Positions 9,938-56,374 of a stretch of 58,380 nt of DNA are shown here, in pieces. Each line of letters starts with the position of its first letter. The stretch's first letter is position 1. The notes below the pieces were generated by a model that saw only the letters and a program-made list of their open reading frames with translations, was not told the origin of the DNA and did no database searches. Location of the stretch: positions 1 to 58,380 of IMG/VR virus record IMGVR_UViG_3300028840_000492, one strand, 5' to 3'. Origin of the DNA: a virus. Lineage: Duplodnaviria > Caudoviricetes. A program made the translations under genes and the position numbers.

Positions 9938-10159
9938 ATGAAAGATGTACGAAAAAGATTTGAGCAAATTCTAAAAGAATTCATCGTTCTTTACGATGCT
10001 CACGCAGCTAGTGACAAACAAGGAAAGGTAGATAGCCTTGTTCTTATTCAGACTGCATTGAACAATTTGTTAGCGCTCAATCAGTATGAAATGGGAAAAG
10101 CGCAGCTTGAGATGAGTTGCGATGCTTGTATGAAAGATTCTGAGGAATCGGAATCTTAG
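9938..10159 (+). CDS. Hypothetical protein
   Basis: 73-aa helical ORF in the operon. Confidence 0.55.
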   Translation: MKDVRKRFEQILKEFIVLYDAHAASDKQGKVDSLVLIQTALNNLLALNQYEMGKAQLEMSCDACMKDSEESES

Positions 10160-10164
10160 TCTTT

Positions 10165-10267
10165 CATTCTCTGATCTCCCCCTCGGAGAATGTTAATGGG
10201 GTGGATGGACTGATCATCTGTCCACTCCAATATAAAATTTATGTTAGGCGGGAGTTAACTCGACTCC
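10165..10267 (+). promoter_or_regulatory. Three stem-loops upstream of the scaffold gene
   Basis: 10165-10174/10183-10192 (10 bp), 10197-10209/10217-10229 (13 bp with G-U pairs), 10251-10255/10263-10267. Confidence 0.5.
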
Positions 10268-10286
10268 AGAGATATAGGAGGATATT

Positions 10287-11246: not shown

Positions 11247-11272
11247 AGCATAACTTATAAAGGAGATAAAAA

Positions 11273-12325: not shown

Positions 12326-12412
12326 TCTCTAGGAGTATAATATAGGAGGACTATGACCCATTCATCGTAAGGTGGCGAGTCCTCCACCAAATTTAATGGG
12401 GATCGTAACCCC
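12318..12412 (+). promoter_or_regulatory. Structured intergenic element with mini-ORF after the major capsid gene
   Basis: Hairpin 12318-12336 over the stop codon; GGAGGACT (12345-12352)/AGTCCTCC (12378-12385) stem enclosing ATG ACC CAT TCA TCG TAA; GGGG/CCCC hairpin before the next SD. Confidence 0.5.
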
Positions 12413-12424
12413 GAGGAGAATCTA

Positions 12425-13279: not shown

Positions 13280-13294
13280 TTAAAACTAAAGGTT

Positions 13295-13320
13295 GACCCC
13301 GTACCTTAAACGGGGTTTTA
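13295..13320 (+). terminator. Probable intrinsic terminator
   Basis: ACCCCGT-accttaa-ACGGGGT followed by TTT. Confidence 0.6.
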
Positions 13321-13337
13321 ATATAAAAGGGGGAGTT

Positions 13338-13577
13338 ATGGTTATTGAATTTTCACCACATCAGTATATTGATATTGATAAGGTTCACGCACTACGATGG
13401 ATTGTTGCAGGAGATAAAGCAGTCGGTATTGTTGTGCTGAACGGCGACAAAATCGTGGTCACGGAACGTGAAGAATTTGATGCAATCGAATCTGCTTACA
13501 TTTGGAAGAACAAAAGTTATATGGTAGATGATAAACTAAAGAAGGTTCGATGGGTAAAGGGGGATCCAAATGTCTAA
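13338..13577 (+). CDS. Hypothetical protein
   Basis: GGGGAG SD then ATG 13338. Confidence 0.6.
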   Translation: MVIEFSPHQYIDIDKVHALRWIVAGDKAVGIVVLNGDKIVVTEREEFDAIESAYIWKNKSYMVDDKLKKVRWVKGDPNV

Positions 13578-14589
13578 TTCAACTGTAAATAGAACAACGG
13601 TGCAGGCCCTGAACTGGGCTGGACAATTGAAACTATCTAAGCAGCAAGACTTCATAGATATATTTGGAAAACTTACTGGAGAAGGATTTGCTTGGGATTC
13701 AGTAGATCAGGTGTTAGTTAAACCTAATGCAGCTTTTGGTAGGTTTCTTAGTGCTGACACTCCTTGGTGTCACGTAAAGAGTTCACCTTATAAGAACTGC
13801 AACTTTGATCATTCAATTGTGTTTACACATTTTGGGATTATACCTCCTAGGTGCTTAGAGTGCTGGAAGGTAACTGTATCCCCTAAGAGTTATCACGAAC
13901 TGAGATTGTTAGAAGATCTGCAACAGAGTAGTCCGTATCCATGCAAATGTGGAATCGAATTACGGCAGTATGTTCCTAAACATTATGGTGGTTATTTCTA
14001 TAATAACAGCTTAGACGAAGGCCGAGAGTGTTACGAATGGGTGCTCAAGGCTGTGAAGGAACAGTTTGGCGATGATCGTAATGTTCTGCTGAAACGTGGG
14101 TGTACTGAGTATGAATTCCTCAAAGGACCTTCTCCCTTTTGGGTAATGACACCAGAGGAAGAGAAGAAGCTGGAATTGATACAGGCATACGTGAGAGATG
14201 ATCGTGGAAACGGCTCACAACCTGATCTGGTTAAGAACCATATTCGACTCAGATGGGCGCAATGGGCGCACTCCAATGGCGATATGTCCTATAAAGATTA
14301 TAACGGTGGCGAAGCTCTGTATCCTGATTATGTCAAGTATCACCAGGGATCGATCGATGGGATTAAATCGGATCTAGCCATGGCTAAGAGTCAGGCAAAG
14401 ATTGGGTTGGATCCAAAGATCACTAGAGAGTTTCAGGAGTTGGCTCAACAGTTCTCAGATAAACACAAGTTGAGTAGCCCAACTCTGTTGATACATGCGT
14501 TAGGAGCGCAAGAGTTGAATCCTCTCAAAGCTGCTAACTTTACGGACATTCCAAAGGAAGTGGTAGGTGAGCAAGATGAACTTACTTAA
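13570..14589 (+). CDS. Uncharacterised Cys-motif protein
   Basis: PPRCLECWKV...CKCGIELR...YGGYFY...LKRGCTEYE motifs; enzyme-like globular composition. Confidence 0.75.
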   Translation: MSNSTVNRTTVQALNWAGQLKLSKQQDFIDIFGKLTGEGFAWDSVDQVLVKPNAAFGRFLSADTPWCHVKSSPYKNCNFDHSIVFTHFGIIPPRCLECWKVTVSPKSYHELRLLEDLQQSSPYPCKCGIELRQYVPKHYGGYFYNNSLDEGRECYEWVLKAVKEQFGDDRNVLLKRGCTEYEFLKGPSPFWVMTPEEEKKLELIQAYVRDDRGNGSQPDLVKNHIRLRWAQWAHSNGDMSYKDYNGGEALYPDYVKYHQGSIDGIKSDLAMAKSQAKIGLDPKITREFQELAQQFSDKHKLSSPTLLIHALGAQELNPLKAANFTDIPKEVVGEQDELT

Positions 14590-14902
14590 CACTCCCGGGT
14601 CAACTGATATATGCGAGAAGTGTGGATCTTTCTGCTGTAACTACAACCTAAGAGTTATTCCAGTAGAAGAAGGTGAAGCTAATCCAGTTCAGTTAGATTA
14701 CTTTCTAACAAGGGCAGTGGATCATCAGGTGATTAACGATAAACATTATTGTATTATGAACCAACAATGCCCACACTTAAAGAACAATAAGTGTAGCATT
14801 TACAAAGTTCGTCCTAAACATTGCGCCGAGTTTCCGCAACGATGGGACGAAGATTGGACTCATTTCTGTGAGTTAATGAATAAAATGTATAAAGGAGAAT
14901 AA
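14567..14902 (+). CDS. YkgJ-family (CxxCxxCC) Fe-S/Zn cluster protein
   Basis: CEKCGSFCC ... CPHLKNNKCSIYKVRPKHCAEFP. Confidence 0.8.
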   Translation: MSKMNLLNTPGSTDICEKCGSFCCNYNLRVIPVEEGEANPVQLDYFLTRAVDHQVINDKHYCIMNQQCPHLKNNKCSIYKVRPKHCAEFPQRWDEDWTHFCELMNKMYKGE

Positions 14903-14905
14903 CAC

Positions 14906-15373
14906 ATGGCTACTTATGGCGATAGTGCTCAAGAGTATCCTTACAAGCCCGCACGAAGACGCAAGCAAAAGTATAGTCTTGTTACTAGAGTTTTAGACTT
15001 TACTAATAACTTGCCTGTAACTGACGCAGCTGGTACGACTACGGCTTGGGCTGCTGGCGATGTGCTAGAGGCAATAGGCATCAAAGCAGGACAGACTGTT
15101 CTAGGTGTTCAGCTGGAGATCTTAACTAGATCTTTAGACGCATATGATGTGATTGACATTGGGTACGGCAGTAACGCAACTAGGTGGGGTCGATACAACT
15201 TATCCTCTGCCGTAGAAGTTAAAGACACCTTAGCTAGCACTGCTGCGTTTGATGATATGTTCTTAGAGCCGTTGTACTTTGCGTCAAAAGATACGATCGA
15301 TGTCACAATCCGCAAAGCTGCATTGCAAGGAAAGGTCAGACTTATAGTTCACTTATTGGAGGATGATAGATAA
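14906..15373 (+). CDS. Decoration/cement-like virion protein, paralog 1
   Basis: RVLDF...GDVLEAIGIKAG...IDIGY...DTIDV pattern shared with neighbours. Confidence 0.6.
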   Translation: MATYGDSAQEYPYKPARRRKQKYSLVTRVLDFTNNLPVTDAAGTTTAWAAGDVLEAIGIKAGQTVLGVQLEILTRSLDAYDVIDIGYGSNATRWGRYNLSSAVEVKDTLASTAAFDDMFLEPLYFASKDTIDVTIRKAALQGKVRLIVHLLEDDR

Positions 15374-29591: not shown

Positions 29592-32500
29592 ATGAAACTT
29601 AGTGAGCTTACAGGAACGGATACTGCACAGACAGAAACCAAAACTCCTGAAACTGAAACCTATGATTCTAATTCGTTTGATCCTATTATTAAGAAGGCAT
29701 CAAAACAATACGGTGTACCTGAAGCTCTATTGAAGGGCATGATACATCAAGAATCTAGTTGGAATCCTAGAGCAACAACTCCTAAATCTTCAGCTAAAGG
29801 ATTGATGCAGCTGATAGATGATACTGCAGCTGAAATGGGAGTAGAGGATCCATTTGATCCTGTACAAAATATCATGGGTGGTGCTAAGTACCTTAAACAG
29901 CAACATGATAAATTTGGTACATGGGGTAATGCTCTTGGTGCGTACTATGCTGGCCCTACGAATTACTCTCGTATTAAGGCTGGAGAGGCAGAGTCAGATC
30001 CCGAATTGGCTAAGCTAGTAAAGGATACTAATTTACATGTGAGTCGTGTCGCTAAGTACGCCAAACAGTATAAGGAGCAGACAGCGCCTGTTGTTAAAGC
30101 TAAAGCCATTACTGACATTCCTAAGTTTAATAATATTGCTAACAATCCTGTCCAACCAGCTAAGGTTAAAGCTGAACTAAAAGCTGATGTAAAGAAACCT
30201 AAAGGGCAGAGCTGGTGGAAGAACATGCTAGAGATGATGGGTGGAAACCAGAAGAAGGTAGCTGAAATAGCTGCCGAGCAGCTCAAAGGTGTTGGTGTTA
30301 CCTATCAGTATACAGATCTAGACATGGATAAGAGTCGAGTTTGGGCTGATATTATGATGAATAAAGGGGAAGTCACCCCTGAGAATGAGGCCAAACTCAA
30401 TGAACTTAATGCTCAGATGCAGAGACTTGAGGATGAGGTAGCGCAAGCTCCATTCATGGCTGATGCTGTTGGATCGTTATTGCCTTTTGTTAAAGAGTCT
30501 ATGTTGGCTAGTGGTAAAGGTGGACTTGTCGGTGCTGGTATTGGATTAACCGCTGCTGCTGCAGTTGAGGCAATAGTTCCTACTGTTGGTGAAGGTATGG
30601 CTTTGGCTCCTGGTCTTATGAAGCTAGGTGCTACTGCTATGGCAACCAACGAGACGGCTCAGAATATGCTATGGATTGAAGCTGGTAGTTTCTATGAAAA
30701 GGCTAGAGCTATGGGCATGGATCATGAGTATGCCAAACCTGCTGCTATGATTTATGGCGGTGGTGCTGCTGGTCTTGAAACTATGAAGTTAAAATACTTA
30801 GGTAAACTTATTCCTGGTTCTCGTGCGGTAGCCAATAAGATTATCAAGAATGGATTTGTCAGGGCCTTAGATAAGGGTATGATGTCCAGGATAGGAAAAG
30901 ATCTGGTATCTACAACGATGGGTGAGGCTGGTGTTGAAGTTAGCCAGCAATTCTTAGATAACTTAACGATGGGTATCACAGAGGAATTGCATGATCGTTA
31001 TAAGGGAACTGATATTTCACCAGACAATATGGCTGAATGGGCAGCTCAGGTAAGTGATGGCTTAGTAGAAACCTTTATTAAATCTGCTGCAGGCATGGGT
31101 ATTATTTCTATCCCAGGTGTATCTATTAACGTGATGACTGAGGGTGGTAAGAAGACTGTTGCCAAACAATATGAAGAGGCACTGACTCCTCCTGCAAAGA
31201 AACCACCTAGAAAGAAACCAGCTAAGAAAGAAGAACTTAGTGACGCAGCTAAAAGAGCTAGAGAGGCTGCTAAAGCAAAGATGAAGGAGTTAGGTTTAGC
31301 CGAAGAAACAGCTAAGAAAACTCCTGAGAAGAAAGAAACGAAGAAGAAAAAGGAAGAGTTTAAACTTCCTGAAACTAAGAAGCCAGAAAAGAAAGAGGAA
31401 GAGGCTAAGGCTCCTGAGCAGATGGAGTTGCCCCTTGGTAAAGAGGAGAAGGCTGAAGAGAAGGCTCCTAAGAAAAAGCAAGAGAAGCCTAAGAAAGAAG
31501 AGCTTACTATAGAGGAAACAGAAGAGGAAGAGGGCGAAGCTCCCAAAGAAGTCTTTAAGTTTCCTGAGCCTAAAGATAAAAAGAAAGATACAAAAGATCC
31601 TGAGACTAAAGAAGACTTTCAAGAACTAGCAGGAAAGGATGTTAAAGTAGATGCTCTTGGTGAAGAGGATAGCACTACCCCTGCTGACCAAGTACAAGTA
31701 ACTGTCATTGAAGGTGAGGCAAAAGGCAATACTTGGAATATACCAAAAAAGGATTTTGCTGATGAACTTAAAAAACGAAAAGATGAATATGCCAAATCTA
31801 ATAAAGGAAAGAAAGAACTTAGTCCAAGAGAAAAAGCTTATGCTACTGGAAAAGAAGAGACAGAAGAGCAAGGAAAATCTGAAGGAATTGAAGAGAAAGC
31901 TAAAGGAACTGGAGCTAAGAAAGAAACACAACTACCAAAGCGAACCACCGAAGAACTAAAAGCTGAAGAGTTAGAGAAAGAAAGAAGGAAAGAAGTTTAT
32001 AAAACCCTGAAGGCTGAGTTTCCTACCGCCACTGAGGAACAGCTGCAGGCTATGACTGACAGTTCTATGGAGCGGTATGAGATAGGTAAGAAAAGAACTA
32101 AGACCTACCAGGGCAAGACTGAGTTAGACATAGAAGAAAAAGAAACTGAAACCCAGGTTAAGGAAACTGCAAAGGATGTTAAGTCTCAGCTTGCAGAGTT
32201 TGAGAAAGAGCATGGGATTAAAGAGCCTCCTGTTAAGATTAAAGCCCTAAGACAGTTAAATGTTCCTGGTATTGTGGTAGATGGAAAGACCTACAGAGGT
32301 AGGGCGCTAAATACTACAGATATTCGTACTAATAAATTTATAGAACAGTTTATGACTAGCATCCAAGAAGCTAAAGAACTAGCTAAAGCTGATGGTAAAG
32401 ATCCTAAAAATGCTCAAATGGTTTTTATAGTTGATGGTAAACCTGTTGATGCTAGAAATGCAGCTACACAAATAGGGCTACAAGCTAAGGTAGATGCTGT

Positions 32501-35500
32501 CAAAGAGGCAAAAGAGTTAGCTAGAATTGAATCAGAAGCTAAGGCTCTGGAAAAAGAACTAGCTAATAGGGAAAAGGATCAGAAAGCATTAAAGAACACT
32601 CGTAAACCCACTGATGCTGATAAACTGATCTTTAAAGGAGTTGAGAAAGCATTAAGGAATTCTGCAGCTAAACAAAAGAACTCTCCCTTGGGTCGAGGTA
32701 TACCGTTTGAGGATATTTATAATAGTGTTGTAGCTAAGGTATGGGAACGTTTGTTGAAACTTCCTAAAGCCCAGGTTTTAGATTCTAAGAATCATGCTAG
32801 TATAGCTGCATTATTGAGAACTACTGGTAAGCATTTAGCTAAGAATATTGTTAAAGAGTTCTATGGTAAGCGTGCTGACGTTATCAAGAAGGTGGAGAAG
32901 GGTGAGAAGGTCAGCATGGACGAGTACAAAGAGGCTGGCTTATCTGATACCATGGACCATATCAACAATATATTGAACGCTGAGGATAAAGGTTTTGTTA
33001 GAGACAGTAAAAAGAAAAAAGCCAGATCTAATGCTACCATTATGATGACTATCAATGAACGAGCTGAAGCTGCTAGGTTTGACCTTGATTATATTCAACG
33101 AAAGATTTGGAGACTAGAACGTGAGATCAAGGCAGCTAAGACTCAAGATCGTAAGAATGAGTTAGCTGTTAAGTTAGTTGAACTTAAAAACGAGTATAAA
33201 GATGAAGAGCCTAATGTGAAACGCCTTGAGACTATGGCTGGAGCTGCGCCCAGTGCAGTTAAGAAGCTGACAGACAAAGAACTGTTAGCTGCCAAGGCTC
33301 AAGAAAAGAAAGCTGCTGAGGCTCAAAGAAAGAGGGCTATAGAAAATGCAAAGAATCGTACAGTTGTGTCTAAAGAAGGTTTCGGCACTGTACCTCTTGA
33401 TAAAGAGGATATACCCCGAACTAAAAACGCTCAGTATTACGCTGAAAGAGCTGCTGAAGAAACTGCTAGGCTAGAGAAAAAGGGATTTGTAGCACCTCGT
33501 CTGCCTAAAGTTGAACAAAAGCAGGAGAAGGCTGCAGAGACAACTCCTGGTAAGAAGTTTGTTCCGACTCATTCAGATAAATTGAAAGCTGAAAAAGAAA
33601 AAGCTGAAAAGATTAAGTCTAAACGAGCCGAGAAGAACGCAAAGACCTTATCTAATCCAGCAGATATTATTGATGCTAAGAATAAGCTGAAAGATATACC
33701 TCAAGATATGTTCATAGCTACAGATAGAATAAATGGCAAGACTATCATAGGTACATGGGAACAGGTAGCTGATTTAGATAAGAGATCGTGGGAGGTTAAG
33801 TCAGCTGATCAGGCTAAGCTAGAAATAATTAGTAAAGAGCAGCCTAAAGGTGTTATTACAACTACACTAAATGCTCAGCGCAAGCAACCCCAATTTGTAA
33901 TATTAACTAACCCTGACACTAAACCATCTAAAATAATCAAAGCCGATAAGATGATGGACAACTTTTGGAAATGGGTACAGAAACAACCATTGTTTGACTT
34001 TGTACAAAACATGTTAAACCAAGGTACATATCTTCATTTTATCGATGGTGCTGAAAATCTAGAACAATTACCATATTGGGATAAGTTAAATGTATTTAGA
34101 AAAGCTCAGTATAAAGAGATGTTTAACTCTGCAAATGAAGATAGAGCTGGTGCATTACACTGTGTTTCTGAATTAATCGATGGTAAGTTAATTGATCATA
34201 TTGTTATAGATATGAGTGCTTCTGAAATTGCTACAACTGAACAAATGTATGGTACTGTTGTACATGAAACTATCCATTCGGCAATATCTTATTTTAGAAG
34301 ATGGGCATCTCCTCTTCAAGTAAAACAATTTAACAATGCTTTATCTAATTTATGGCATCAAAATAAACATCAGTGGAAGGATGCTGTTGCTGCTTATGCT
34401 AAAGATCTAAGGAGTGTAGATAGAAACGCCAGAGCAAATTGGTTGGAGAAGAAATGGGGGCCTGTTGTACGGGACGCTATCGAAAATAATGTAGAAGAAA
34501 TAGCTACATATACACTTTCAGATGTACATATTGCCAACGTATTAGCTAGGATGGTAGATGTAACAGAGCGCCAAGCACCTCCGCTCAAAGGTAAAAATTA
34601 TATAAGATCTGTTTGGGACAAAATGGTAGATATTGTTCGACAGCATATAATCATGGGCGGAAGAAAGATGCTGATGACTAATCAGTATAATTTGCTTTCA
34701 TCTCTTAAAAAGGTTATGAATGAATTTGTTTTCGTTGATGGAACTTATGATTATCAACTAATGCAAAAAAGAGCTGTTACCACAGCTAAAGGATTCAAGA
34801 TAACTCCTGACACTACTATGGGGTTGTTGCTCTTAAAATCCCAACGAGTTGCTAAAGAATCAGAAATAGCTACAGCACCTCTAGCCCCGGGCGAGAAACC
34901 TACTGCTACTGATAGAAAGAATTATTTTAAATTTGTTTTGGATAAAACTACAGGAGCAGTTACTAGCCTTAGAGATTGGCTCGACATTGAATCTCCTTGG
35001 AAAGCTATGGGTGCGTATAAAACTGGTAGTGTACTCAAGAGATATTATAGTAAGAAAACTAAGTACGAAGAGATGGGTGTCAAGAAAGTTCAAGCTATTA
35101 TAGATAAGTATAAAGAAACTACTGGAGGATTTAATGAGGCTGAGTTCTTAGATGTCTTGCTAGCAGAGGAGAGTCCTAGGCTAACTAAAAGATGGAGTCC
35201 TATGAAGAGGGCTAAACTAGATCCTATTAGGGCAGAGTTCCGTAAATTCTTTGATGATATGGAACAGATCTATAAAGATCGTGGTGTCCATTGGGATTGG
35301 AAGAAGCGTAGATTGATGGAGCTTGAGCAGAAAGTGCTGGAAGCTACAGACTTTGATAAGCGCAATAAATGGCTACGCCAACTAAATACTTTAAGGGCTA
35401 GTAACTATGTTCATATTCCAGTTAAGTTAATCGTTCAGGATTTATTAAATAACAAAGAATCTATGCTCAAGAAAACTAGAAAAAATAAGCCAGCTGCGCT

Positions 35501-37274
35501 AGCTCAACAGAAAGCTTTTTTAGAAAAGGCAAACAATATAGTTAATGCGAGAAAGAGAGTTACCCTCTCTTTGGGCGAGATACTAGAGAAATATAATATG
35601 GGTGCAGATGAAATATCCCCAACTGAAATATTAATGAACTATATCTGGAGATACTCTCAAGATATGGCTAACTTAGATATTAGAGATGCTATGGTTGAAG
35701 ACGGCTTAGCTATTAAAAATAAAGGTGCTAAGAAAAAGAAACCTACTAAAAAGCAAAGAGGTGATAGGAAATTTGAATATATTAGCTTAAAAGAAGGTAT
35801 GAAAATATCAGGATTCTCCCAGTATTGGGTAGAAACCAAGGCTCTAGCTACGTTCATGCAGCTTAGAGCTGTTAAAGAACAACAAACTAAATGGGAACGA
35901 ATGTTGTCATGGGCTAAGATGGGAGCATTTTATAATCCTTTCTTTTTACCTATATATGACACTTACCAATCGTTTATGTCAGGGGCATGGCTAAGAAATC
36001 CACTCAAGATGCCTGGTTCTATAGCACTAGGTATCTATCATACTATTAAGAAAGATGATTATTATCTTGAAGCTATGGATGAAGGTCTATTTTCTAAACC
36101 ATTTGATATGCCTTGGGATGATTTTAGGCATAAGATAAAGAGGATGGCAAAGTATGGGCATAAACCGTGGCTCTCAAGACAATTAAATGCAGGGCTATAT
36201 CATGTTAAACAACTATCTAATCCAGCACGACATCCAATAAAAAGCACAAGACAATTTCTAGAATTGTTTTACCAAATGTCCTGGCATAGTGCGTGGTGGG
36301 CAGACTCTGCGATTCGTATGACAACATATACTCAGTTACGTAAAACTGGTATGTCAGCGTCTGAAGCTGCATCTTTAGCAGCTAGATTTCACGGTGACTA
36401 TGCTAGTGTTCCGCCAGCAACGAGAAGAAAGTTGAATAAATTTCTTTTTACTCCTACGTTTAAGATAGCTATGACAAAACTATATGGTGATATAATAACA
36501 GCTCCATTTAAAGTAGCACTCCGAAAAGGTGGTACTAAAGTGGATAGACAATATACTATGGGATTAATAGCATCTACAGCAGCAGTAGTAGGTTTTGATT
36601 ACGTTATGCGTAGTATGGGCTATGAACCTGAAGACGATAAGTGGTATAACTTTGGTAGACGATATACTAAAATTGATGAAAATGATGACGGAAGTCCGAG
36701 AGAGTTTGTATTCACTTGGTCGAACCCTGGTAACTTAATGCAAAGATATTTTCATAGAGCAATAACATCTTATAAAAGAAGTGGTGGCTCTTTACCATTA
36801 ACTATCTATAACACATTGAGGTGGGATATACATCCAGTATGGTCATCTCTTGCGTCAGTTCTAACAAATACAAAACCAGACGGAACTCCTATCTTTTATG
36901 AACATGATGACAAAATAGATAAAGTCTGGAAACCAGCCATGTTTATGCTGAAAAATATTGTTAGGCTATTAGAAGCTCCAGGGGATCTTTTAACTCCAGA
37001 ACCTATAACTAGTCAATCTAAACAAGACCTAGATGGATACCTTAATAGTGTGTTATATGTTCTGACTCAACTAAAGATAACCGCAATTGCATCTATCTAT
37101 ACTAGAAATCCTAAGAACATTAGGTTATACCAAGAGTTTAATGCTAAACTAAATGTATACAGATATAATCAAAAGAAGTACATGGACGAACATGGTGATT
37201 TAAACTTAGAGTGGGAAGAAAATTTCATGGATGATTTAGAAAGATACAGAGAGGAAATGCTAGATGTGGAATAA
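29592..37274 (+). CDS. Giant internal virion protein with N-terminal lytic transglycosylase (SLT) domain
   Basis: IHQESSWNPRA..AKGLMQL..DPFDPVQNIMGGAKYL..ALGAYYAG; K/E-rich linker; HETIH...EEIA motif; 2560 aa. Confidence 0.85.
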   Translation: MKLSELTGTDTAQTETKTPETETYDSNSFDPIIKKASKQYGVPEALLKGMIHQESSWNPRATTPKSSAKGLMQLIDDTAAEMGVEDPFDPVQNIMGGAKYLKQQHDKFGTWGNALGAYYAGPTNYSRIKAGEAESDPELAKLVKDTNLHVSRVAKYAKQYKEQTAPVVKAKAITDIPKFNNIANNPVQPAKVKAELKADVKKPKGQSWWKNMLEMMGGNQKKVAEIAAEQLKGVGVTYQYTDLDMDKSRVWADIMMNKGEVTPENEAKLNELNAQMQRLEDEVAQAPFMADAVGSLLPFVKESMLASGKGGLVGAGIGLTAAAAVEAIVPTVGEGMALAPGLMKLGATAMATNETAQNMLWIEAGSFYEKARAMGMDHEYAKPAAMIYGGGAAGLETMKLKYLGKLIPGSRAVANKIIKNGFVRALDKGMMSRIGKDLVSTTMGEAGVEVSQQFLDNLTMGITEELHDRYKGTDISPDNMAEWAAQVSDGLVETFIKSAAGMGIISIPGVSINVMTEGGKKTVAKQYEEALTPPAKKPPRKKPAKKEELSDAAKRAREAAKAKMKELGLAEETAKKTPEKKETKKKKEEFKLPETKKPEKKEEEAKAPEQMELPLGKEEKAEEKAPKKKQEKPKKEELTIEETEEEEGEAPKEVFKFPEPKDKKKDTKDPETKEDFQELAGKDVKVDALGEEDSTTPADQVQVTVIEGEAKGNTWNIPKKDFADELKKRKDEYAKSNKGKKELSPREKAYATGKEETEEQGKSEGIEEKAKGTGAKKETQLPKRTTEELKAEELEKERRKEVYKTLKAEFPTATEEQLQAMTDSSMERYEIGKKRTKTYQGKTELDIEEKETETQVKETAKDVKSQLAEFEKEHGIKEPPVKIKALRQLNVPGIVVDGKTYRGRALNTTDIRTNKFIEQFMTSIQEAKELAKADGKDPKNAQMVFIVDGKPVDARNAATQIGLQAKVDAVKEAKELARIESEAKALEKELANREKDQKALKNTRKPTDADKLIFKGVEKALRNSAAKQKNSPLGRGIPFEDIYNSVVAKVWERLLKLPKAQVLDSKNHASIAALLRTTGKHLAKNIVKEFYGKRADVIKKVEKGEKVSMDEYKEAGLSDTMDHINNILNAEDKGFVRDSKKKKARSNATIMMTINERAEAARFDLDYIQRKIWRLEREIKAAKTQDRKNELAVKLVELKNEYKDEEPNVKRLETMAGAAPSAVKKLTDKELLAAKAQEKKAAEAQRKRAIENAKNRTVVSKEGFGTVPLDKEDIPRTKNAQYYAERAAEETARLEKKGFVAPRLPKVEQKQEKAAETTPGKKFVPTHSDKLKAEKEKAEKIKSKRAEKNAKTLSNPADIIDAKNKLKDIPQDMFIATDRINGKTIIGTWEQVADLDKRSWEVKSADQAKLEIISKEQPKGVITTTLNAQRKQPQFVILTNPDTKPSKIIKADKMMDNFWKWVQKQPLFDFVQNMLNQGTYLHFIDGAENLEQLPYWDKLNVFRKAQYKEMFNSANEDRAGALHCVSELIDGKLIDHIVIDMSASEIATTEQMYGTVVHETIHSAISYFRRWASPLQVKQFNNALSNLWHQNKHQWKDAVAAYAKDLRSVDRNARANWLEKKWGPVVRDAIENNVEEIATYTLSDVHIANVLARMVDVTERQAPPLKGKNYIRSVWDKMVDIVRQHIIMGGRKMLMTNQYNLLSSLKKVMNEFVFVDGTYDYQLMQKRAVTTAKGFKITPDTTMGLLLLKSQRVAKESEIATAPLAPGEKPTATDRKNYFKFVLDKTTGAVTSLRDWLDIESPWKAMGAYKTGSVLKRYYSKKTKYEEMGVKKVQAIIDKYKETTGGFNEAEFLDVLLAEESPRLTKRWSPMKRAKLDPIRAEFRKFFDDMEQIYKDRGVHWDWKKRRLMELEQKVLEATDFDKRNKWLRQLNTLRASNYVHIPVKLIVQDLLNNKESMLKKTRKNKPAALAQQKAFLEKANNIVNARKRVTLSLGEILEKYNMGADEISPTEILMNYIWRYSQDMANLDIRDAMVEDGLAIKNKGAKKKKPTKKQRGDRKFEYISLKEGMKISGFSQYWVETKALATFMQLRAVKEQQTKWERMLSWAKMGAFYNPFFLPIYDTYQSFMSGAWLRNPLKMPGSIALGIYHTIKKDDYYLEAMDEGLFSKPFDMPWDDFRHKIKRMAKYGHKPWLSRQLNAGLYHVKQLSNPARHPIKSTRQFLELFYQMSWHSAWWADSAIRMTTYTQLRKTGMSASEAASLAARFHGDYASVPPATRRKLNKFLFTPTFKIAMTKLYGDIITAPFKVALRKGGTKVDRQYTMGLIASTAAVVGFDYVMRSMGYEPEDDKWYNFGRRYTKIDENDDGSPREFVFTWSNPGNLMQRYFHRAITSYKRSGGSLPLTIYNTLRWDIHPVWSSLASVLTNTKPDGTPIFYEHDDKIDKVWKPAMFMLKNIVRLLEAPGDLLTPEPITSQSKQDLDGYLNSVLYVLTQLKITAIASIYTRNPKNIRLYQEFNAKLNVYRYNQKKYMDEHGDLNLEWEENFMDDLERYREEMLDVE

Positions 37275-37499: not shown

Positions 37500-38033
37500 A
37501 TGATTAAAAAAGCGATCGCACTTATTGTTATGGGCTTTATGTTGGTGGCTGGAGCGGGCTGTGCCACCTTGGGTAATGGCAAGCTGGATATTCCTGGTCT
37601 AGAACAGGCAACTCCAGAAGATGTGTATGCCTCTGGTCGTTTGCTAGGCATTACCGTGCAGAAAAAAGGCAATGCTCAGCTGACTGAGGACGCACTGTAC
37701 ACGATTAACAGAGTCATGGAGGCAACTCCAGAAAGTATTAAACGTATTTTAACCGAAGAGGTCATGCTGTTTATCAGTGACTATTTCGCACCTGGAAGCT
37801 ATGAGGTACTCATGCTGATGGAACTAGGTAGGCAGTTTGGTATCACAGACATCGACGCAGTTGACGACAACTTGCAGTCTATTGACCTGTGCTTAGTCAA
37901 ATCGTTTGCGCTAGGCGTTAAGCATGGTATTATGTTGGCTATGGGAACACCTGAACCTTATAAGACAGACTTCAGTGACGTCTGCCCTGTCGATCCTGTT
38001 CCAGTTCAACCGCTGGAGGATCAGGTTAGATGA
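37500..38033 (+). CDS. Putative lipoprotein
   Basis: Signal peptide ending AGAGC. Confidence 0.6.
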   Translation: MIKKAIALIVMGFMLVAGAGCATLGNGKLDIPGLEQATPEDVYASGRLLGITVQKKGNAQLTEDALYTINRVMEATPESIKRILTEEVMLFISDYFAPGSYEVLMLMELGRQFGITDIDAVDDNLQSIDLCLVKSFALGVKHGIMLAMGTPEPYKTDFSDVCPVDPVPVQPLEDQVR

Positions 38034-38443
38034 AAATCGATCCAATAAAGTATAAGAAGGGCTATAAGTATCAACTTGAGGACGACTTCAAGGCATCTCT
38101 AAACTTTGAATGTCCTGATGTGGAGTCAGATTACATTAGGATTAAAGATAATGTGCTGTATATCAAGAAGGGATACGCTTGGGATGGTTGCAGTGGGCCT
38201 ACTATTGACAGTATAAAGAGCATGAGGGCTAGCCTAGTACACGATGCTCTATATCAGTTGATAAGATACTCATTGATACCAGCTAAGTTTCGTCTGCTGG
38301 CTGACTTATTATTTTATGTGATCTTAAAGCTCGATCGGTTCAATCCGATGAGAGCGTGGTATTATTACCAAGCTGTTAAGAACTTTGCTTGCAAGGCTGC
38401 AAGTCCTTCTCACAAGAAGAAAGTTATAACAGCACCAAAATGA
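38030..38443 (+). CDS. DUF1353-like protein
   Basis: IKKGYAWDGCS..ASLVHDALYQ..ADLLF..YYQAV. Confidence 0.75.
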   Translation: MKIDPIKYKKGYKYQLEDDFKASLNFECPDVESDYIRIKDNVLYIKKGYAWDGCSGPTIDSIKSMRASLVHDALYQLIRYSLIPAKFRLLADLLFYVILKLDRFNPMRAWYYYQAVKNFACKAASPSHKKKVITAPK

Positions 38444-43648: not shown

Positions 43649-43961
43649 CTAAACTCTCAGCCATATCTTCTTTAGCTTGATTATTATAGTACATTACATC
43701 TTCCTCTCTCACTTTCTCAACCTCAATACCAAGTCTTTTTGCTTCAGCGATTGCTCTCTTGTAGTGCTCCTCGAACCACCAATCTGTGTTTATAAAATAC
43801 TTAACATCATGCGGGTCAAAGGGAATCCTAAATGGCATACCACCCTCACCAACACTCTTAAATAGATTGGGTTCCAGATAACCTACAATGCGATAACAAT
43901 CTCCGTTCCGTTGCCAATAAGGGCAGTCTTTACATTTCATTTTACCTCGCTGTTGGTACAA
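43590..43961 (-). CDS. Hypothetical protein with N-terminal Cys cluster
   Basis: CKDCPYW....C. Confidence 0.55.
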   Translation of the reverse strand: MYQQRGKMKCKDCPYWQRNGDCYRIVGYLEPNLFKSVGEGGMPFRIPFDPHDVKYFINTDWWFEEHYKRAIAEAKRLGIEVEKVREEDVMYYNNQAKEDMAESLVDTTLYYFKTKGDFDCESI

Positions 43962-44850
43962 CTAGCGTCTTAGATTTGGACTCAGAGACATCGCTATGCC
44001 GACTCCTGCCGACTGCTCCGCACTCGCACCTGAACGCTCTGTATTTACCCGAGTTCGTATAATAATATCCCTGCCAATTTAAATTGTCAGAGCCACAGTT
44101 CGGGCAAACTGTTTTGTCTGTGTCAATGTATAATCCCATATTGGGATGCGACTTAATCCACGGTCTCAACTTGGTATAGAGTTCCTCTAGTACAACTACA
44201 TCCTGCATACAGTACTCTGTTAGTTCTGCCAGAGCATTGCTATCCCCTGTTACCGAGCGCTTCCATAAGCTAAAGTTTGATTCACCTTTTCTAGCAATGT
44301 TCAAGAACGCTGCTAAAGAATCTAACTTATGGCTGGATGCTGCAAAGAATTTCTGAGCCTGCTTCAACGTATCCACAACTTGATACGGCTTAGGCGGAGG
44401 GAGATGTGCCTTTAAAAATCTAAGATTCATCTTCCTAACATCAAACTTGGCAGCGTTATGCGCTATCACTATGTCAGCCTCGTCCATTAAACTCCACATA
44501 GATTCCAGAATGGATGTATCATTTCTTTCAGTAGCCTCTGCTGTCGTAACTGTAGCGTGGTACACTCTAGAATCATACAGCCACTTAGCAGCCCAACATA
44601 ATACACTCCAATCTTTTACAATATTCTGTTCATGGATAGGACCTTTCTGAAACAAAGACCAAATATAACACTCCATTGGTGCGGTTTCAACATCAAATAG
44701 TAGAATCCGAGGCATCCCAGTAGCCTCACGAGCTTCTTGCCTAGCCCGTCTTACCGTCCGTCTAGACACCCCCAATGCGTCAGCAATCACAGCTGTCTGT
44801 TCATTAGGGTGGTCTCTGAGATATTCTTTTACCTGTTCTTTTTTATCCAT
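43942..44850 (-). CDS. HTH plus DnaQ/RNase H-like 3'-5' exonuclease with Zn ribbon
   Basis: IADALGVSRRTVRR; LFDVET, AHNAAKFD, YCMQDV; CPNC..CEC. Confidence 0.85.
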   Translation of the reverse strand: MDKKEQVKEYLRDHPNEQTAVIADALGVSRRTVRRARQEAREATGMPRILLFDVETAPMECYIWSLFQKGPIHEQNIVKDWSVLCWAAKWLYDSRVYHATVTTAEATERNDTSILESMWSLMDEADIVIAHNAAKFDVRKMNLRFLKAHLPPPKPYQVVDTLKQAQKFFAASSHKLDSLAAFLNIARKGESNFSLWKRSVTGDSNALAELTEYCMQDVVVLEELYTKLRPWIKSHPNMGLYIDTDKTVCPNCGSDNLNWQGYYYTNSGKYRAFRCECGAVGRSRHSDVSESKSKTLVVPTAR

Positions 44851-46922: not shown

Positions 46923-47131
46923 GCTGTCTCACCTCTGTACTTATAAGCACCAGCATTGTACACAGAGTCAGGTCTAATTAATGTAGTGCGGTACATATAA
47001 CACCGTGGGCAATGTCCACCAACTGCCCTCTTACCGCTAGGAAGTGTTGCCCCATTATGAGTATCATCAGCCATGTACCATACCTGTCCACATCCACCGC
47101 ACGTAACTTTAGTCATAAGTTTAAATCTCAT
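46919..47131 (-). CDS. Small Zn-ribbon protein
   Basis: CGGC...CPRC. Confidence 0.6.
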   Translation of the reverse strand: MRFKLMTKVTCGGCGQVWYMADDTHNGATLPSGKRAVGGHCPRCYMYRTTLIRPDSVYNAGAYKYRGETA

Positions 47132-47759
47132 ATAGTGCCTCCATTCTTTTTAGTATTCTTTTTCTATCTCTAATAATAGATTGATGACCGCAATTAAACT
47201 GAGATCCTAATTGCATATAAGTTTTTCTTTCTACTTTTTTATAGATCGTATACTCAAATACAGCACGCTCTCTAATGTTAAGGCTAAGCAGAAATTCCTT
47301 GAATGTGTCTGACCCTAAAATAGATTGCTGCATTACGATCTGTTCTGTGTCGATCGGATCGTGAAAAGCCTCAACAATAAAATCATATGATTCTCTATTA
47401 AACTTCTCACGCTTTCGTATAAAATCTATCATACGAGAATAGAGTTTATACCATGCCCAAGTTCTAAAGAGCTTATCTGTTGCTGGATCATATGTAGTAA
47501 TAGCCTCTAACAAAGCAACATAACCTTCTGACTCTAACTCAGACCGATCGTGATAATTAAATCTGCTAGCAACTAACTGAGGAAGATAACTAAACTCCTG
47601 AGCTAATTGGTTAGCTAATCCTGGTTCTGTTGTTATTGGATCATCAGTCGGCTCATCTATTAAACCGTCTTTAATTTTCTTATGGTAATAACAATATCTT
47701 TTACCACAGGAATTGCGATCACAATAACTGCCATCACTATGTTTCCATTTACATCCCAT
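47121..47759 (-). CDS. Phage sigma70-family factor with N-terminal Cys/His finger
   Basis: Region 2 ELESEGYVALLEAITTYDP...FRTWA...MIDFIRK; region 4-like LNIRERAVF...TYMQLGSQF; start moved to ATG 47759. Confidence 0.85.
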   Translation of the reverse strand: MGCKWKHSDGSYCDRNSCGKRYCYYHKKIKDGLIDEPTDDPITTEPGLANQLAQEFSYLPQLVASRFNYHDRSELESEGYVALLEAITTYDPATDKLFRTWAWYKLYSRMIDFIRKREKFNRESYDFIVEAFHDPIDTEQIVMQQSILGSDTFKEFLLSLNIRERAVFEYTIYKKVERKTYMQLGSQFNCGHQSIIRDRKRILKRMEALYEI

Positions 47760-47809: not shown

Positions 47810-49696
47810 CTATACCTCTTTTACCTCCCCATAACTGGGTCCGATTGCGATCTCGCCAGTGAGATCTGCCTTCCAATCATACCCAAAATAGTTTTTGATA
47901 TATTTCTTGAGATTGTTTCCAACTGATTCGCACAACTTGCGTAACTTCTTGAGTTCATTTTTCTTGACATCGAACACAATAGAATCATGCACTGTTAGAA
48001 TCAACTTGGACTCTAGCCCATACTTGAGCATACCCCTGCGGATTATGACCACCAATAGAGGCAAGATGTCGCCACCAGCTAACCCCTGCACTGGATAGTT
48101 CTTAATCTGGCGTTCGTTATACGGCTTCTGGAACACGAACTTACGCCCAGTGAACAGCTGTAGGTAGCCCTGCTTCCATACCTTATTGATGTTGCTGTCC
48201 TGCCATGCCTTCAAGACTTTGTATTTCTTATAGAAATCTACACATATCTGTTTCCATTTAGTCTTGCTGAAGTTAGGCATCCTCGGGTCGAGATAGAATC
48301 CCATGTACGAACCACCATAGATCATCCTAAAGTTAAAGATCTTGGCGAAGGTTCTATTCTCCTTGGTCAACTCTAGCTTCATGATGTGGACGCAAGCCTC
48401 ACTATGCTGATCAACTCCATGATTGATTTCATAGAGCATAACAGGATCTTGCGATAGCTCTGCTGCTGCACGCCACTCTATCTGGCTGAGATCATACTCC
48501 ATAATATAATCATACGTGGGTACGATACACAGCTTGATAGGTGAGGTGCTCCCTCTTGGCATATTCTGGCTGTTAGGATCTGAGCTAGTCAGCCTGCCTG
48601 TAGCTGCAACAGTCTGATTAACATTGGAATGTATCTTACCATCAGACTGTAGCTTATTGAGCAAGCCAGACTTAGTCTTTTGATTCTTGCCAAGCAGGGT
48701 CTCGACAACCTTTTTAGCCTCGCTATACTCTAAGAGCAAGGCTTTAACCTGACGTTGGAGCTTACTACGGCACACCAACCTGCCTATAGTTTCCTTATCA
48801 GCCTTCATCTGTGGAGTACTGAACACCACGAATGGTGTAAAGCCCCATCCTTTGATCTCTTTAGACTCAGCATAGTTTTTCTCCCAGTACTTAGACTCAG
48901 GTTTAGACTTTAGCTCTTGGATAGTCCATTCCTTCCACTTAGTCTTGAGAGTACCACCATACAGCATAGCTACTAGCTGGCTGTTAGAGGCAGGATTAAA
49001 ATGAGGCTCACCTGACAGCTCTATCAACTCTTGCTCTAATGCAGTGGCTTGATCACCATACTCTTTAATAAAGTCGTAGGCTTGAGCAGCGTCAAACCTA
49101 AATCCATTCATCTCAATATCAGATAGGGCAAATGTAAACTCATTGCTGAGCCTATACAGCTTCAGCATATTTTCTTTTTGAACACGCCTTATCTGACAGG
49201 TGGCGATAGCCAATGCCTTATCACAATCATCAAGGACATACTCCTCTAGCAACATGGCAGGAACATTATAAGTATCTATCCCTGTTTCCCACATTGCCTT
49301 GACTTTGTCTAGCTTGCCTTCAAGCCCATACCTTTTGGCGGTAGCATCTAAGGAATATGCGATCTCCTTTGACTGACCTTCGAGTAGGTAATCAGTTACC
49401 TGTGTACAATGTAACTCCTTACCCTCGAAGTTGATGCCAAAGCACCTCAGTATGGTCATGTCGTGCTTTAAGTTGTGAGCTACAATGACGTCAGCCTCAT
49501 CAATGTATTGTTGTAATTCCTTTAGCTTGTCAACATATGGTTCATCTGGTTTTTCCGAATGACTAAACCATAATACCCTTTTCCTCCCGTCATCAAACAC
49601 AAGCCCAACGCAACTGATATAGAACCCAGGATGATAAGGGCGAAAGGAATTATAACTATGCTCAATGTCAATACTAAGTACCTTGGGAACATGCAT
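47810..49696 (-). CDS. DNA polymerase, family A, with 3'-5' exonuclease
   Basis: IDIE, AHNLKHD, YVLDD exonuclease motifs; TGRLTSSDPNSQN, DLSQIEWR (A), RTFAKIFNFRMIYG (B), TVHDSI (C). Confidence 0.95.
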   Translation of the reverse strand: MHVPKVLSIDIEHSYNSFRPYHPGFYISCVGLVFDDGRKRVLWFSHSEKPDEPYVDKLKELQQYIDEADVIVAHNLKHDMTILRCFGINFEGKELHCTQVTDYLLEGQSKEIAYSLDATAKRYGLEGKLDKVKAMWETGIDTYNVPAMLLEEYVLDDCDKALAIATCQIRRVQKENMLKLYRLSNEFTFALSDIEMNGFRFDAAQAYDFIKEYGDQATALEQELIELSGEPHFNPASNSQLVAMLYGGTLKTKWKEWTIQELKSKPESKYWEKNYAESKEIKGWGFTPFVVFSTPQMKADKETIGRLVCRSKLQRQVKALLLEYSEAKKVVETLLGKNQKTKSGLLNKLQSDGKIHSNVNQTVAATGRLTSSDPNSQNMPRGSTSPIKLCIVPTYDYIMEYDLSQIEWRAAAELSQDPVMLYEINHGVDQHSEACVHIMKLELTKENRTFAKIFNFRMIYGGSYMGFYLDPRMPNFSKTKWKQICVDFYKKYKVLKAWQDSNINKVWKQGYLQLFTGRKFVFQKPYNERQIKNYPVQGLAGGDILPLLVVIIRRGMLKYGLESKLILTVHDSIVFDVKKNELKKLRKLCESVGNNLKKYIKNYFGYDWKADLTGEIAIGPSYGEVKEV

Positions 49697-49899
49697 TAGT
49701 CCCTCCTTTTCCAATCATATTTAATTATCCTAACATTTACATCTTTAAATGGGCATATATATTTAGTATCTGGATTAGTTAAATACTGATAACCTACACA
49801 ATGCCCACCCAATAATGTACCACCTCCTATCGAACACGCAGTATCACGACATTCTTTAGTCCAATGACGACATATATATATTGCATCATTATCCATCAA
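49696..49899 (-). CDS. Small Cys-rich protein
   Basis: YICRHWTKEC...ICPFK. Confidence 0.55.
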   Translation of the reverse strand: MMDNDAIYICRHWTKECRDTACSIGGGTLLGGHCVGYQYLTNPDTKYICPFKDVNVRIIKYDWKRRD

Positions 49900-53525: not shown

Positions 53526-55196
53526 TTAGCTAATCTCCTTAAAGTAGTCATTAATCTGGTGAGTGATGCTTCTAAACCTATTAGTATTATTTAAGAATGA
53601 TTTATAATCTGTAAGGTTTACCATATTCATAGTACAGTCGGCTGTGTATTCATACATCGACTGCAAGAACTCAATGTAAGAACTAAAGCGATCGTATGCT
53701 GTAGTGCTAGCAAATATCCTGAGTTCTATTGTTGGCTGCCTATCCCCTGATGTTAGATTAATAGCTGAATTTCTAACCTGGGATAAGTTTATCTTATCCT
53801 TACTCATTCTCGCAGCATGATTCCAATCATCCTCTGCGTAACGAGCATAGCTGGACTGCCTGTGAGCGACATAGTCAGTCATAAATGTCCTATGTTTTGG
53901 GTTATAAATCATCTTGATGAATTTATATAACTGAAATGTATTAAATGCATCCCTGCTCATATGGACATGGATGCCCGTAGATGTATTAGGATACATACCA
54001 TTCTCAGTCATATAAGTACACATCCTTTTAAACAACTCTCTATTTGTCTTAAACCACTCCCAGGTAAAAGGATGCGTCACCATCTCAAACCCACGGTCAA
54101 TGGAGCTATCTGACTTGATATATAAGAACTTTTTATCAGCCATTTTAATTAGGTCTGCCCCTTTTTTCTTCTTTTCTGAATCAAAATCACTTTTAACATT
54201 AATTTCCCATTCAACACCATAGTATAATCGGTCTGATCTATACCTTTGGGTGTTCACATGATGGAAATTAGGAGCAGGCTTGTAGCTATAACTATTAATA
54301 ACATTGAGTTCTGCATAGCACTCACCACAGATCTGAGCATAGGGATTAGCTTCAGTGGAATGACGTTTCATATTTTGCTTTAGATCATGTTTACCACAAA
54401 CAGCACAAGTTCCAATAACCTGCTTTAAACAATGATCATTGCATACCATGATAGAAGGTCTATTCCCATATTGTGTAAAGCTCATATCAGAATACCTAGC
54501 CTGTATATCTATCCCTATACCATCTTTTAACAGCATACTACAAGCTACACAGCTATTATATTTATTATAAATACATTTAATACATAGGGTTTTAGTTTGG
54601 TACTTAACACCATCAAATATCTTTTTATGGTGCATGCTTTGGCTTGATACATAATCACCACAATCTATACATTGCTCAAAATAATTATCAGCACAATACT
54701 GACAGATAGTGAATTTGTTAGCCCTTAGTGAACCTGTTCCTACTGGGACAGCCTCAAACCCTGAATCTGGAGTTCTAGTAGGAACCCAACCGTCTATTTT
54801 ATCTGAGTTTGGATGCAGACGACCACATAATTGACAGTAATATTTGCCTTTACGATGGATTCCTTTGTTCGCAGCTATCACATTCAGCATTTCAGTGAGG
54901 TAATAACTATATTGTGCTAATCTTTTAGAGAAGTTAGCATTACTATAACTATTATTATTATTACCACTAAATAAGCTAGCCCAACCCACTTTAGGCAGGT
55001 TTAATGGAGGTTGGGTCAAGTCAAACAAACGAGGCTTCTTTGTCATACCAAGCCTCATAAGCGACTTGCTAATGTCATTATCATATTTTTTAATAATTGA
55101 TTTTAATCTGTCATCTACACAGGCTCTGCAATTACACTGCCCTTCGATGAAACAATTTTCGACATCCTTTTTCATTTGAGAAATGATCTTAGACAT
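53526..55196 (-). CDS. Amidoligase (COOH-NH2 ligase) with N-terminal Zn-ribbon array
   Basis: GVEWEI, KSDSSI..GFEMVTHP, TGIHVHMS, TIELRIF; many CxxC pairs. Confidence 0.85.
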   Translation of the reverse strand: MSKIISQMKKDVENCFIEGQCNCRACVDDRLKSIIKKYDNDISKSLMRLGMTKKPRLFDLTQPPLNLPKVGWASLFSGNNNNSYSNANFSKRLAQYSYYLTEMLNVIAANKGIHRKGKYYCQLCGRLHPNSDKIDGWVPTRTPDSGFEAVPVGTGSLRANKFTICQYCADNYFEQCIDCGDYVSSQSMHHKKIFDGVKYQTKTLCIKCIYNKYNSCVACSMLLKDGIGIDIQARYSDMSFTQYGNRPSIMVCNDHCLKQVIGTCAVCGKHDLKQNMKRHSTEANPYAQICGECYAELNVINSYSYKPAPNFHHVNTQRYRSDRLYYGVEWEINVKSDFDSEKKKKGADLIKMADKKFLYIKSDSSIDRGFEMVTHPFTWEWFKTNRELFKRMCTYMTENGMYPNTSTGIHVHMSRDAFNTFQLYKFIKMIYNPKHRTFMTDYVAHRQSSYARYAEDDWNHAARMSKDKINLSQVRNSAINLTSGDRQPTIELRIFASTTAYDRFSSYIEFLQSMYEYTADCTMNMVNLTDYKSFLNNTNRFRSITHQINDYFKEIS

Positions 55197-55206
55197 ATAC
55201 TATCTC

Positions 55207-56373: not shown

Positions 56374-56374
56374 T

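Follow-up and report, generated by a model that had tools for sequence, protein, structure and literature searches.

The question raised by this locus is whether part of a sigma factor is built into a giant protein of a phage, one that probably enters the host cell together with the DNA. The window (the whole stretch of DNA analyzed here) is the complete IMG/VR record IMGVR_UViG_3300028840_000492 of the class Caudoviricetes, which is 58,380 bases long and has an estimated completeness of ~70%. It contains an uninterrupted open reading frame (ORF) of 2560 amino acids for a putative ejected (gp16-like or polyvalent) virion protein, in which a first-pass annotation, made from the letters alone, had placed a degenerate sigma70-like segment that the phage might inject to redirect host RNA polymerase or to act as a decoy. 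The letters that it quoted are found at 32628-32925 on the + strand, where 99 residues (1013-1111 of the 2560-amino-acid ORF) include ALRNSAAKQKNSPLGRGIPFEDIYNSVVAKVWERL, SIAALLRTTGKHLAKNIVKE, and KVSMDE. We find that most of this segment lies in a highly diverged module that is probably homologous to region 2 of the sigma-70 factors and that belongs to a small family of such modules inside giant phage proteins. The features on which the argument rests are as follows.

29592-37274, + strand: giant ORF, 2560 amino acids, putative ejected (gp16-like or polyvalent) virion protein; uninterrupted
32628-32870, + strand: sigma-70 region-2-like (sigma2-like) module, residues ~1013-1093; profile-profile match, ESM Atlas clusters, and AlphaFold2 helices
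32703-32759, + strand: region-2.2-like helix PFEDIYNSVVAKVWERLLK, residues 1038-1056; predicted to contact the beta' clamp helices; conservation within the family is highest here
32871-33011, + strand: module tail ..(R/K).Q(V/I)..A.KEG..P..E(A/V).., residues 1094-1140; conserved, contains KVSMDE

Conservation of the module in related giant proteins

Searches with blastp at E<=0.01 found conservation only at both ends of the giant protein, and the resulting impression of an unconserved middle was overturned by phmmer, jackhmmer, and an iterated hidden Markov model (HMM). With residues 880-1140 as the query against 15 homologs, phmmer matched P0011 at E 4.9e-10, collinear through the module, P0010 at 7.6e-6, and, weakly, P0008, while jackhmmer added P0009. 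The iterated HMM placed the module in 6 of the 16 proteins of the family (residues 1000-1140 of P0002, 795-939 of P0011, 669-821 of P0010, 513-652 of P0009, 687-827 of P0008, and 719-853 of P0005), with P0006 and P0003 being borderline. Among 21 relatives from IMG/VR, one carries the module (locus L173, ORF 9674-15184). In all of these proteins, the module comes after one common alpha/beta block with a helical linker.

The best conserved part of the module is the core that the first-pass annotation had singled out, with the family pattern G(K/R)..D..(D/E)L(Y/Q)..A...LWE.(I/L). Thus, where that annotation had made its case depend on the conservation of GRGIPFEDI in homologs, G(K/R)..D..(D/E)L is indeed conserved. 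In the core of region 2.2, for which the profile consensus is DLiqeGniGLikAv, the alignment holds at D-(I/L) and at the hydrophobic positions (EDIYNSVVAKVW); in place of Q-E-G, this copy has N-S-V, whereas P0008 has ELYNEGAKALW. Farther on, P0008 and P0009 carry ELYNEGAKALWEYLL followed by (W/F)ATQYV, and the latter position is occupied by SIAALLRTTG in this copy. The module tail, in which alignment positions G105 and E115 are invariant, lies outside every sigma-profile alignment.

The family profile matches sigma-70 region 2

The evidence for kinship with sigma factors comes from comparing the module family as a profile with profiles of known sigma factors. With hhalign, five members matched a profile of 29 extracytoplasmic function (ECF) sigma factors, taken from 5 bacterial genomes, with a probability of 62% (P 7.5e-5, score 32.0), and they matched 21 sigma factors of groups 1 to 3 with a probability of 35% (P 3.9e-4, score 30.6) in the identical register. 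The match of six members to 50 sigma factors was the strongest (probability of 89.2%, P 2.2e-6, score 40.7), and this alignment covers 73 columns, from helix 1 through the end of region 2.4. Seven members against the same 50 gave 84.7% (P 6.6e-6, score 38.2), and a separate profile comparison of five members with 19 ECF sigma factors gave 52.4% (P 1.4e-4, score 30.9).

All controls scored far lower. Reversed alignments reached 11.5 for the six-member profile and 12.5 and 20.7 for the five-member profile. Column shuffling gave a maximum of 14.8 in 100 shuffles of the six-member alignment and maxima of 19.2 and 19.3 in 150 shuffles of the five-member alignment. Sixteen other conserved blocks of the same protein family scored 9.3-17.5 against the sigma profile, and the module compared with those 16 blocks as decoys scored 16.4 at most. 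Additionally, the P value fell by four orders of magnitude as relatives were added (0.03, then 7.5e-5, then 2.2e-6), which is the behavior expected of true remote homology. The first-pass proposal of an embedded sigma-like module therefore stands for the family profile, which matches sigma-70 region 2 well above chance, but not for the single segment, which by itself is at the level of chance.

Single members gave traces of the same signal. On a combined sigma HMM, four of seven members beat at least 199 of 200 shuffles, with P0008 at 9.5 bits and this copy at 5.7 bits. When five members were searched singly against the 18,950 NCBIfam models at E<=10, five families were weakly matched, of which three are for sigma factors, namely FliA/WhiG (E 0.024), TIGR02937 (E 0.049), and an ECF family (E 0.089), all far short of the cut-offs. 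A 130-residue cut of the segment had a single NCBIfam match, which was an ECF sigma model (E 0.073, 12.8 bits).

The alignments also set the limits of the likeness. The order and spacing of the motifs, which had been described as matching, hold roughly and in the same register, but hhalign has to place a 4-8-residue gap between the helices that resemble regions 2.2 and 2.3. The reading of KVSMDE as region 3.2 finds no support, because every profile alignment stops near residue 1093, before that motif. Region 4 was not found either: the alignments stop at the end of region 2, and both TIGR02937 and the sliding windows are blank downstream. A region-4-like helix-turn-helix picked out by eye at residues 1150-1180 was rejected; it had no profile support, and AlphaFold2 models the stretch as one long helix.

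Language-model searches pointed in the same direction. In the ESM Atlas, Sigma70_r2 appeared in 6 of the 30 clusters nearest to a 211-residue piece. For a 135-residue piece, the 30 nearest named clusters were 24 Sigma70_r2 sets, 1 set of r2 with ECF, 4 viral sets named sigma factor, and 1 HTH_16 set, at scores of 0.94-0.96, to be read with the observation that one third of shuffled proteins also draw all ten of their best named matches from one family. AlphaFold2, run without an alignment, gave helical models with a predicted local distance difference test (pLDDT) of 66.7 and 70.3 and helices at residues 1008-1028, 1039-1056, and 1068-1102.

Predicted docking on the beta' clamp helices

We predicted the complex of residues 1001-1135 with residues 240-340 of Escherichia coli beta'. 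The score was 0.61, compared with 0.00 for the best of three controls. Three runs gave 0.61, 0.60, and 0.64 with a contact agreement of at least 59% and a partner pLDDT of 70. In the calibration of the predictor, 51 of 78 solved complexes passed, as did 2 of 108 mismatched pairs. The predicted interface joins beta' 271-298 to residues 1038, 1040-41, 1044-45, 1047-48, 1051-52, and 1055, which form one face of the 2.2-like helix; a few extra contacts (1003, 1005-06, 1011, and 1014) involve helix 1 and the residues immediately ahead of it. In the part of PMC12000874 consulted, beta' 260-309 is described as the binding site of sigma-70 on the core enzyme, with sigma region 2 binding the clamp helices. 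The predicted interface falls within this site. The earlier suggestion that the segment binds host core RNA polymerase is thus backed by a controlled prediction, though by a prediction only. Our preferred reading, to which we give about an even chance, is that the module would be a sigma2-derived docking module for RNA polymerase, carried on an ejected gp16-like or polyvalent protein.

Layout of the giant protein

The other recognizable parts of the giant protein are the following.

29685-29993, + strand: lytic transglycosylase (SLT) domain, residues 32-134; Pfam PF01464, E 1.8e-23, 82.8 bits
30459-31151, + strand: hydrophobic glycine-rich region, residues ~290-520; Kyte-Doolittle maxima at 310-339 and 494-516
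31209-32231, + strand: Lys/Glu-rich low-complexity spacer, residues ~540-880 (~340 residues); K+E fraction of 0.30-0.60 per 50-residue window
32244-32591, + strand: alpha/beta block (..PGIVVDG..FIVDGKPV..) with helical linker, residues ~885-1000; aligns with P0008-P0011
34263-34277, + strand: HExxH motif HETIH, residues 1558-1562; possible zincin-like peptidase module
34959-37259, + strand: C-terminal domain, residues 1790-2556; common to the family, hydrophobic stretches at 2321-2339 and 2484-2504

Matches to known phage families are confined to the N terminus: all 17 PHROG matches fall within the first ~230 residues, including PHROG 342, "internal virion protein with endolysin domain" (E 1.4e-21), which covers residues 27-229 only. 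A hydropathy scan found hydrophobic stretches at 310-339, 494-516, 2321-2339, and 2484-2504, and residues 540-1790 are strongly hydrophilic (mean hydropathy of -0.91). The hydrophobic glycine-rich region is kept in P0010 and P0011 and is visible in the consensus of alignment A2. The best raw scores of the ECF HMM fall on the Lys/Glu spacer and are among the spurious profile matches that it attracts. The alpha/beta block proper (32244-32486, residues ~885-965) is present also in relatives without the sigma2-like module.

The C-terminal domain is shared with 15 homologs of 1,523-2,652 amino acids at 26-36% identity by blastp, and further relatives occur at 21 IMG/VR loci. Pfam searches of 4 of the 15 homologs (P0005, P0008, P0009, and P0011) returned only SLT, in P0011, and megablast and tblastn searches with the gene and with a 299-residue piece found no match among 50,697 phage records. 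The HExxH motif occurs in 8 of the 16 family members, in the same alignment columns in 7 of these, and has no Pfam match. In the parts of PMC5512222 and PMC7824862 consulted, HExxH peptidase and transglycosylase modules are described as common in polyvalent injected proteins. By analogy with what has been proposed for polyvalent proteins, cleavage of the giant protein by the HExxH module may release the sigma2-like domain. The SLT domain, the hydropathy layout, and the position of the gene together suggest that the giant protein is packaged in the virion and ejected.

Gene order and transcription genes of the phage

The giant ORF is the last gene of the + strand structural block, and the - strand genes from ~38.5 kb on encode replication functions and an ordinary sigma factor. 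The landmarks are as follows.

5353-6969, + strand: large terminase, structural block
7458-9575, + strand: portal, structural block
11273-12325, + strand: major head protein, structural block
47121-47759, - strand: ordinary phage sigma factor (P0018), 212 amino acids, regions 2 and 4; Sigma70_r2, TIGR02937

The portal has at most 28% identity to any phage portal in the collection, and its relatives are podophage-like. Searches of neighboring ORFs against Pfam and PHROGs mostly gave no match. The separate sigma factor reported by the first-pass annotation is genuine, since it exceeds the cut-offs of both models: 29 bits versus 24 for Sigma70_r2 and 45.7 bits versus 42.9 for TIGR02937, over model positions 24-162 of 165. 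The module is not a recent copy of this sigma factor, because the best blastp E value between them is 1.1 and the family profile matches it with a P of only 0.11. The sigma gene sits between the exonuclease gene (43942-44850, - strand) and the polymerase gene (47810-49714, - strand) of a split family A DNA polymerase, which lie ~3 kb apart.

RNA polymerase families, T7-like or multisubunit (PF00940 and PF00623), were not found in the window, with the limit that the PF00940 search is weak, being positive in 0 of 14 control genomes. The C-terminal domain of the giant protein, inspected by eye, shows no convincing catalytic motif of an RNA polymerase. The statement that the phage has no RNA polymerase holds only for the recorded ~70% of the genome, and ~30% is missing from the record. 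Later transcription would rely on the separate sigma gene.

Several other features of the window were recorded. A 168-residue ORF at 338-844 (+ strand), upstream of the terminase genes, has a sub-threshold helix-turn-helix, with 20.3 bits for Sigma70_r4 (cut-off, 24.1), 21 bits for HTH_Crp_2, and a match to positions 130-156 of TIGR02937 at E 0.002. A DUF1353 protein (38030-38443, + strand; 26.4 bits, above the cut-off) follows the giant gene closely, at the strand switch. A - strand cluster at 53526-57544 encodes an RtcB-type RNA ligase (56375-57544), a protein resembling ribosomal protein S6 glutaminyl transferase (55207-56373, - strand), and an amidoligase-like protein (53526-55196). These genes may serve RNA repair or counter-defence, and a search with RtcB among genome contigs found no related loci. 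The GC content of the window is 0.40-0.445, and the window has no tRNA genes.

Alternative explanations

A number of observations weigh against the docking reading, some of them against the role and others against the kinship with sigma factors itself. We infer the presence of the giant protein in the virion from its architecture only. The module is missing from 10 of the 16 family members and from 20 of the 21 IMG/VR relatives. The 2.3-like helix of this copy, SIAALLRTTGKHL, has no aromatic residues, so the loss of the aromatic melting residues described by the first-pass annotation is confirmed. The passing score of the predicted complex may reflect likeness to solved sigma-beta' complexes, the E. 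coli beta' used as a stand-in may differ from that of the real host, and the Atlas and the complex predictor are not independent lines of evidence, because both are ESM-type models.

The same holds for most searches with single sequences and curated models. The segment scored 0.7 bits on the HMM of the 29 ECF sequences, and 187 of 984 scored shuffles did as well or better. Sigma70_r2 of Pfam matched none of three cuts of the segment at E<=10 and none of five family members, PHROGs gave just two families of unknown function (E 0.05), and TIGR02937, searched at E<=10 against the window in all six frames, matched nothing but the genuine sigma gene and, at 368-529, a small helix-turn-helix. Residues 990-1200 had no phmmer match among 1.84 billion representative sequences, the 135-residue piece had no tblastn match among phage records at E<=10, the family profile found no sigma factor among PDB sequences at E<=10, and curated family HMMs gave no significant match. 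Other searches of this kind behaved similarly: phmmer against PDB sequences found nothing at E<=10, and a word-based search with residues 960-1200 found nothing among 3,430 candidates. In hhalign, the single segment matched the ECF profile with a probability of 1-2% (P 0.025-0.06), in the register that the first-pass annotation had proposed, compared with 83% (P 9e-6) for the diverged sigma factor of the phage itself as a positive control. Among 61 sliding windows of the giant protein, three overlapping ones from one other stretch (starts at 1281, 1321, and 1361) outscored the segment. Standard annotation misses the module family because it is small, uncultured, and very diverged.

Fold and embedding comparisons complete the points on this side. 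The nearest Atlas neighbors share 133-143 of 256 features, which is compatible with chance or with a distant relative. The best Foldseek E values, obtained with models made without an alignment, were 1.6 and 0.74 for PDB and 0.14 for BFVD, and nothing reached E<=0.001; among the matches listed, sigma chains accounted for 12 of 47 in one run, and named sigma proteins accounted for 5 of 50 in another. In VIA-align, 7 of the 50 rows of one search and 8 of the 50 of the other were sigma chains, with Z scores of 5.0-6.6 (with 9m98_F taken as a sigma factor from its title and length only), and unrelated helical domains reached 7.2 and 8.3. The fold searches do not discriminate, and we weighed them neither way.

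The alternative that survives best, although we regard it as fairly unlikely, accepts the origin from sigma region 2 and denies the contact with RNA polymerase: the module would be an exapted helical bundle serving capsid-core packing, assembly of the ejection channel, or DNA binding. It would account for the loss in this copy of the aromatic and specificity residues of regions 2.3 and 2.4 and for the N-S-V in place of the Q-E-G core of region 2.2. The constant position of the module after the same alpha/beta block and linker suggests a structural cassette, and in T7 the C-terminal part of gp16 is a DNA-binding cytoplasmic hub, as described in the part of PMC8954989 consulted. However, the best conserved part of the module is precisely the 2.2-like helix, whose outward face is predicted to lie on beta' 271-298, and the complex prediction scored 0.61 versus 0.00 for the controls.

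A chance resemblance, in which an ordinary helical linker of a fast-evolving giant protein merely shares the pattern of an amphipathic helix, is unlikely. It is the explanation suggested by the lack of any HMMER-level match, by the shuffle-level score of the single sequence, by fold matches that are weaker to sigma factors than to unrelated helical bundles, and by the one third of shuffled proteins that likewise obtain ten of ten named Atlas matches from a single family. What it fails to explain is the family profile, with scores of 38-41 compared with a maximum of 14.8 in 100 shuffles, 11.5 for the reversed alignment, and at most 17.5 for 16 natural blocks. The strengthening of the signal with added members, from 0.03 through 7.5e-5 to 2.2e-6, the same register with two separate sigma profiles, and the three sigma models among five weak matches out of 18,950 NCBIfam models also speak against it.

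A complete, promoter-specific sigma role is unlikely for this copy, because the region-2.3 aromatics are lost and there is no region 4 or region 3.2. One tethered version of an initiation factor, which we consider decidedly improbable, would sit at the cytoplasmic mouth of the channel, capture host core RNA polymerase by the beta' clamp helices, and load it on the entering genome end, so that transcription would start early expression and at the same time pull the genome in; the channel would be its tether, as the sliding clamp is for T4 gp55, and the members with (W/F)ATQYV would still melt a -10-like element. We consider it very improbable that the module, whether tied to the ejection channel or released by the HExxH module, works as a minimal initiation factor comparable to T4 gp55 and guides host core RNA polymerase to simple -10-like early promoters on the entering DNA. 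In favor of this reading, hhalign aligns the (W/F)ATQYV of P0008 and P0009 to the aromatic F-x-t-Y-A-x-x-w-I of the sigma profile, no RNA polymerase gene was found in the window, and the HExxH module of the family could release domains (compare PMC5512222, in the part consulted), but the 2.3-like helix of this copy has no aromatic residue, regions 3 and 4 are undetected, and the record holds only ~70% of the genome.

Proposed mode of action

Under the docking reading, the module would be a sigma2 domain made of helix 1, a helix resembling regions 2.1 and 2.2 (GRGIPFEDIYNSVVAKVWERLL), and a long one resembling regions 2.3 and 2.4. Once the giant protein is ejected, its hydrophilic middle would lie in the cytoplasm. 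There, the 2.2-like helix would dock on the core RNA polymerase of the host at the beta' clamp helices, to which sigma factors also bind. The docked module would most likely hold or recruit RNA polymerase at the site of DNA entry, or block the host sigma factor locally, and transcription at later times would pass to the product of the separate sigma gene of the phage. The decoy role that the first-pass annotation had offered is quantitatively doubtful: a virion presumably holds few copies of an ejection protein, so a global decoy is unlikely. Local capture or holding of RNA polymerase at the entry site fits better.

Relation to known systems

The closest relative of the module is region 2 of the sigma-70 factors (Sigma70_r2 and TIGR02937), especially of the ECF type, with which it shares the order of helices, a match across regions 2.1-2.4, and the predicted contact with the clamp helices. 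It differs in scoring far under the curated thresholds, in its longer loops, in having no region 4, and, in this copy, in the absence of the aromatic melting residues. Unlike sigma-70 factors, it is embedded at residue ~1000 of a putative structural protein of 2560 amino acids. A reduction to the sigma2 part has a precedent in T4 gp55, a minimal late sigma factor that is phage encoded and very diverged, consists of the sigma2-like part only, and uses the beta' clamp helices. T4 gp55 is newly synthesized as a free late protein and acts together with gp33 and the sliding clamp. Compared by description only, both are sigma2-only, whereas the module is part of a putative virion protein that would be present at entry.

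The giant protein as a whole resembles T7 gp16. In the part of PMC8954989 consulted, T7 gp16 has an N-terminal transglycosylase and two hydrophobic regions that flank a cytoplasmic hub, and this hub keeps hold of the DNA on its way in until E. coli RNA polymerase takes over. The giant protein likewise carries an SLT domain at the N terminus, has a long hydrophilic part bordered by hydrophobic regions, and is encoded where the structural block ends; it is twice as long, and the sequence similarity is limited to the SLT part. Phage N4, phiKZ, and the crAss-like phages inject RNA polymerases, and T4 Alt is an injected enzyme that modifies RNA polymerase. Injected proteins that act on host RNA polymerase, T4 Alt and polyvalent proteins among them, are described in the parts of PMC7824862 and PMC5512222 consulted. 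Like polyvalent proteins, T4 Alt, and the N4 virion RNA polymerase, the giant protein is large and multidomain and would be delivered with the DNA to act on host transcription at entry. Those proteins use enzymes (ADP-ribosyltransferase or acetyltransferase) or a polymerase of their own, whereas the module would be a noncatalytic piece of a sigma factor. In the parts of the literature consulted, we found no virion or ejection protein described as containing a sigma-derived domain; the word "sigma" is absent from the main texts of PMC8954989 and PMC5512222, with the supplementary domain lists of the latter lying outside this scope.

If the docking reading is correct, the module would represent a third way of acting on host transcription at entry, beside injected modifying enzymes and injected polymerases, and, even before phage gene expression begins, would give the phage a noncatalytic handle on the host core enzyme. 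Giant polyvalent virion proteins would also gain a new type of domain. Overall, in podophages without a polymerase of their own, such a module would provide a physical link between the ejection of DNA and transcription-driven entry of the genome.

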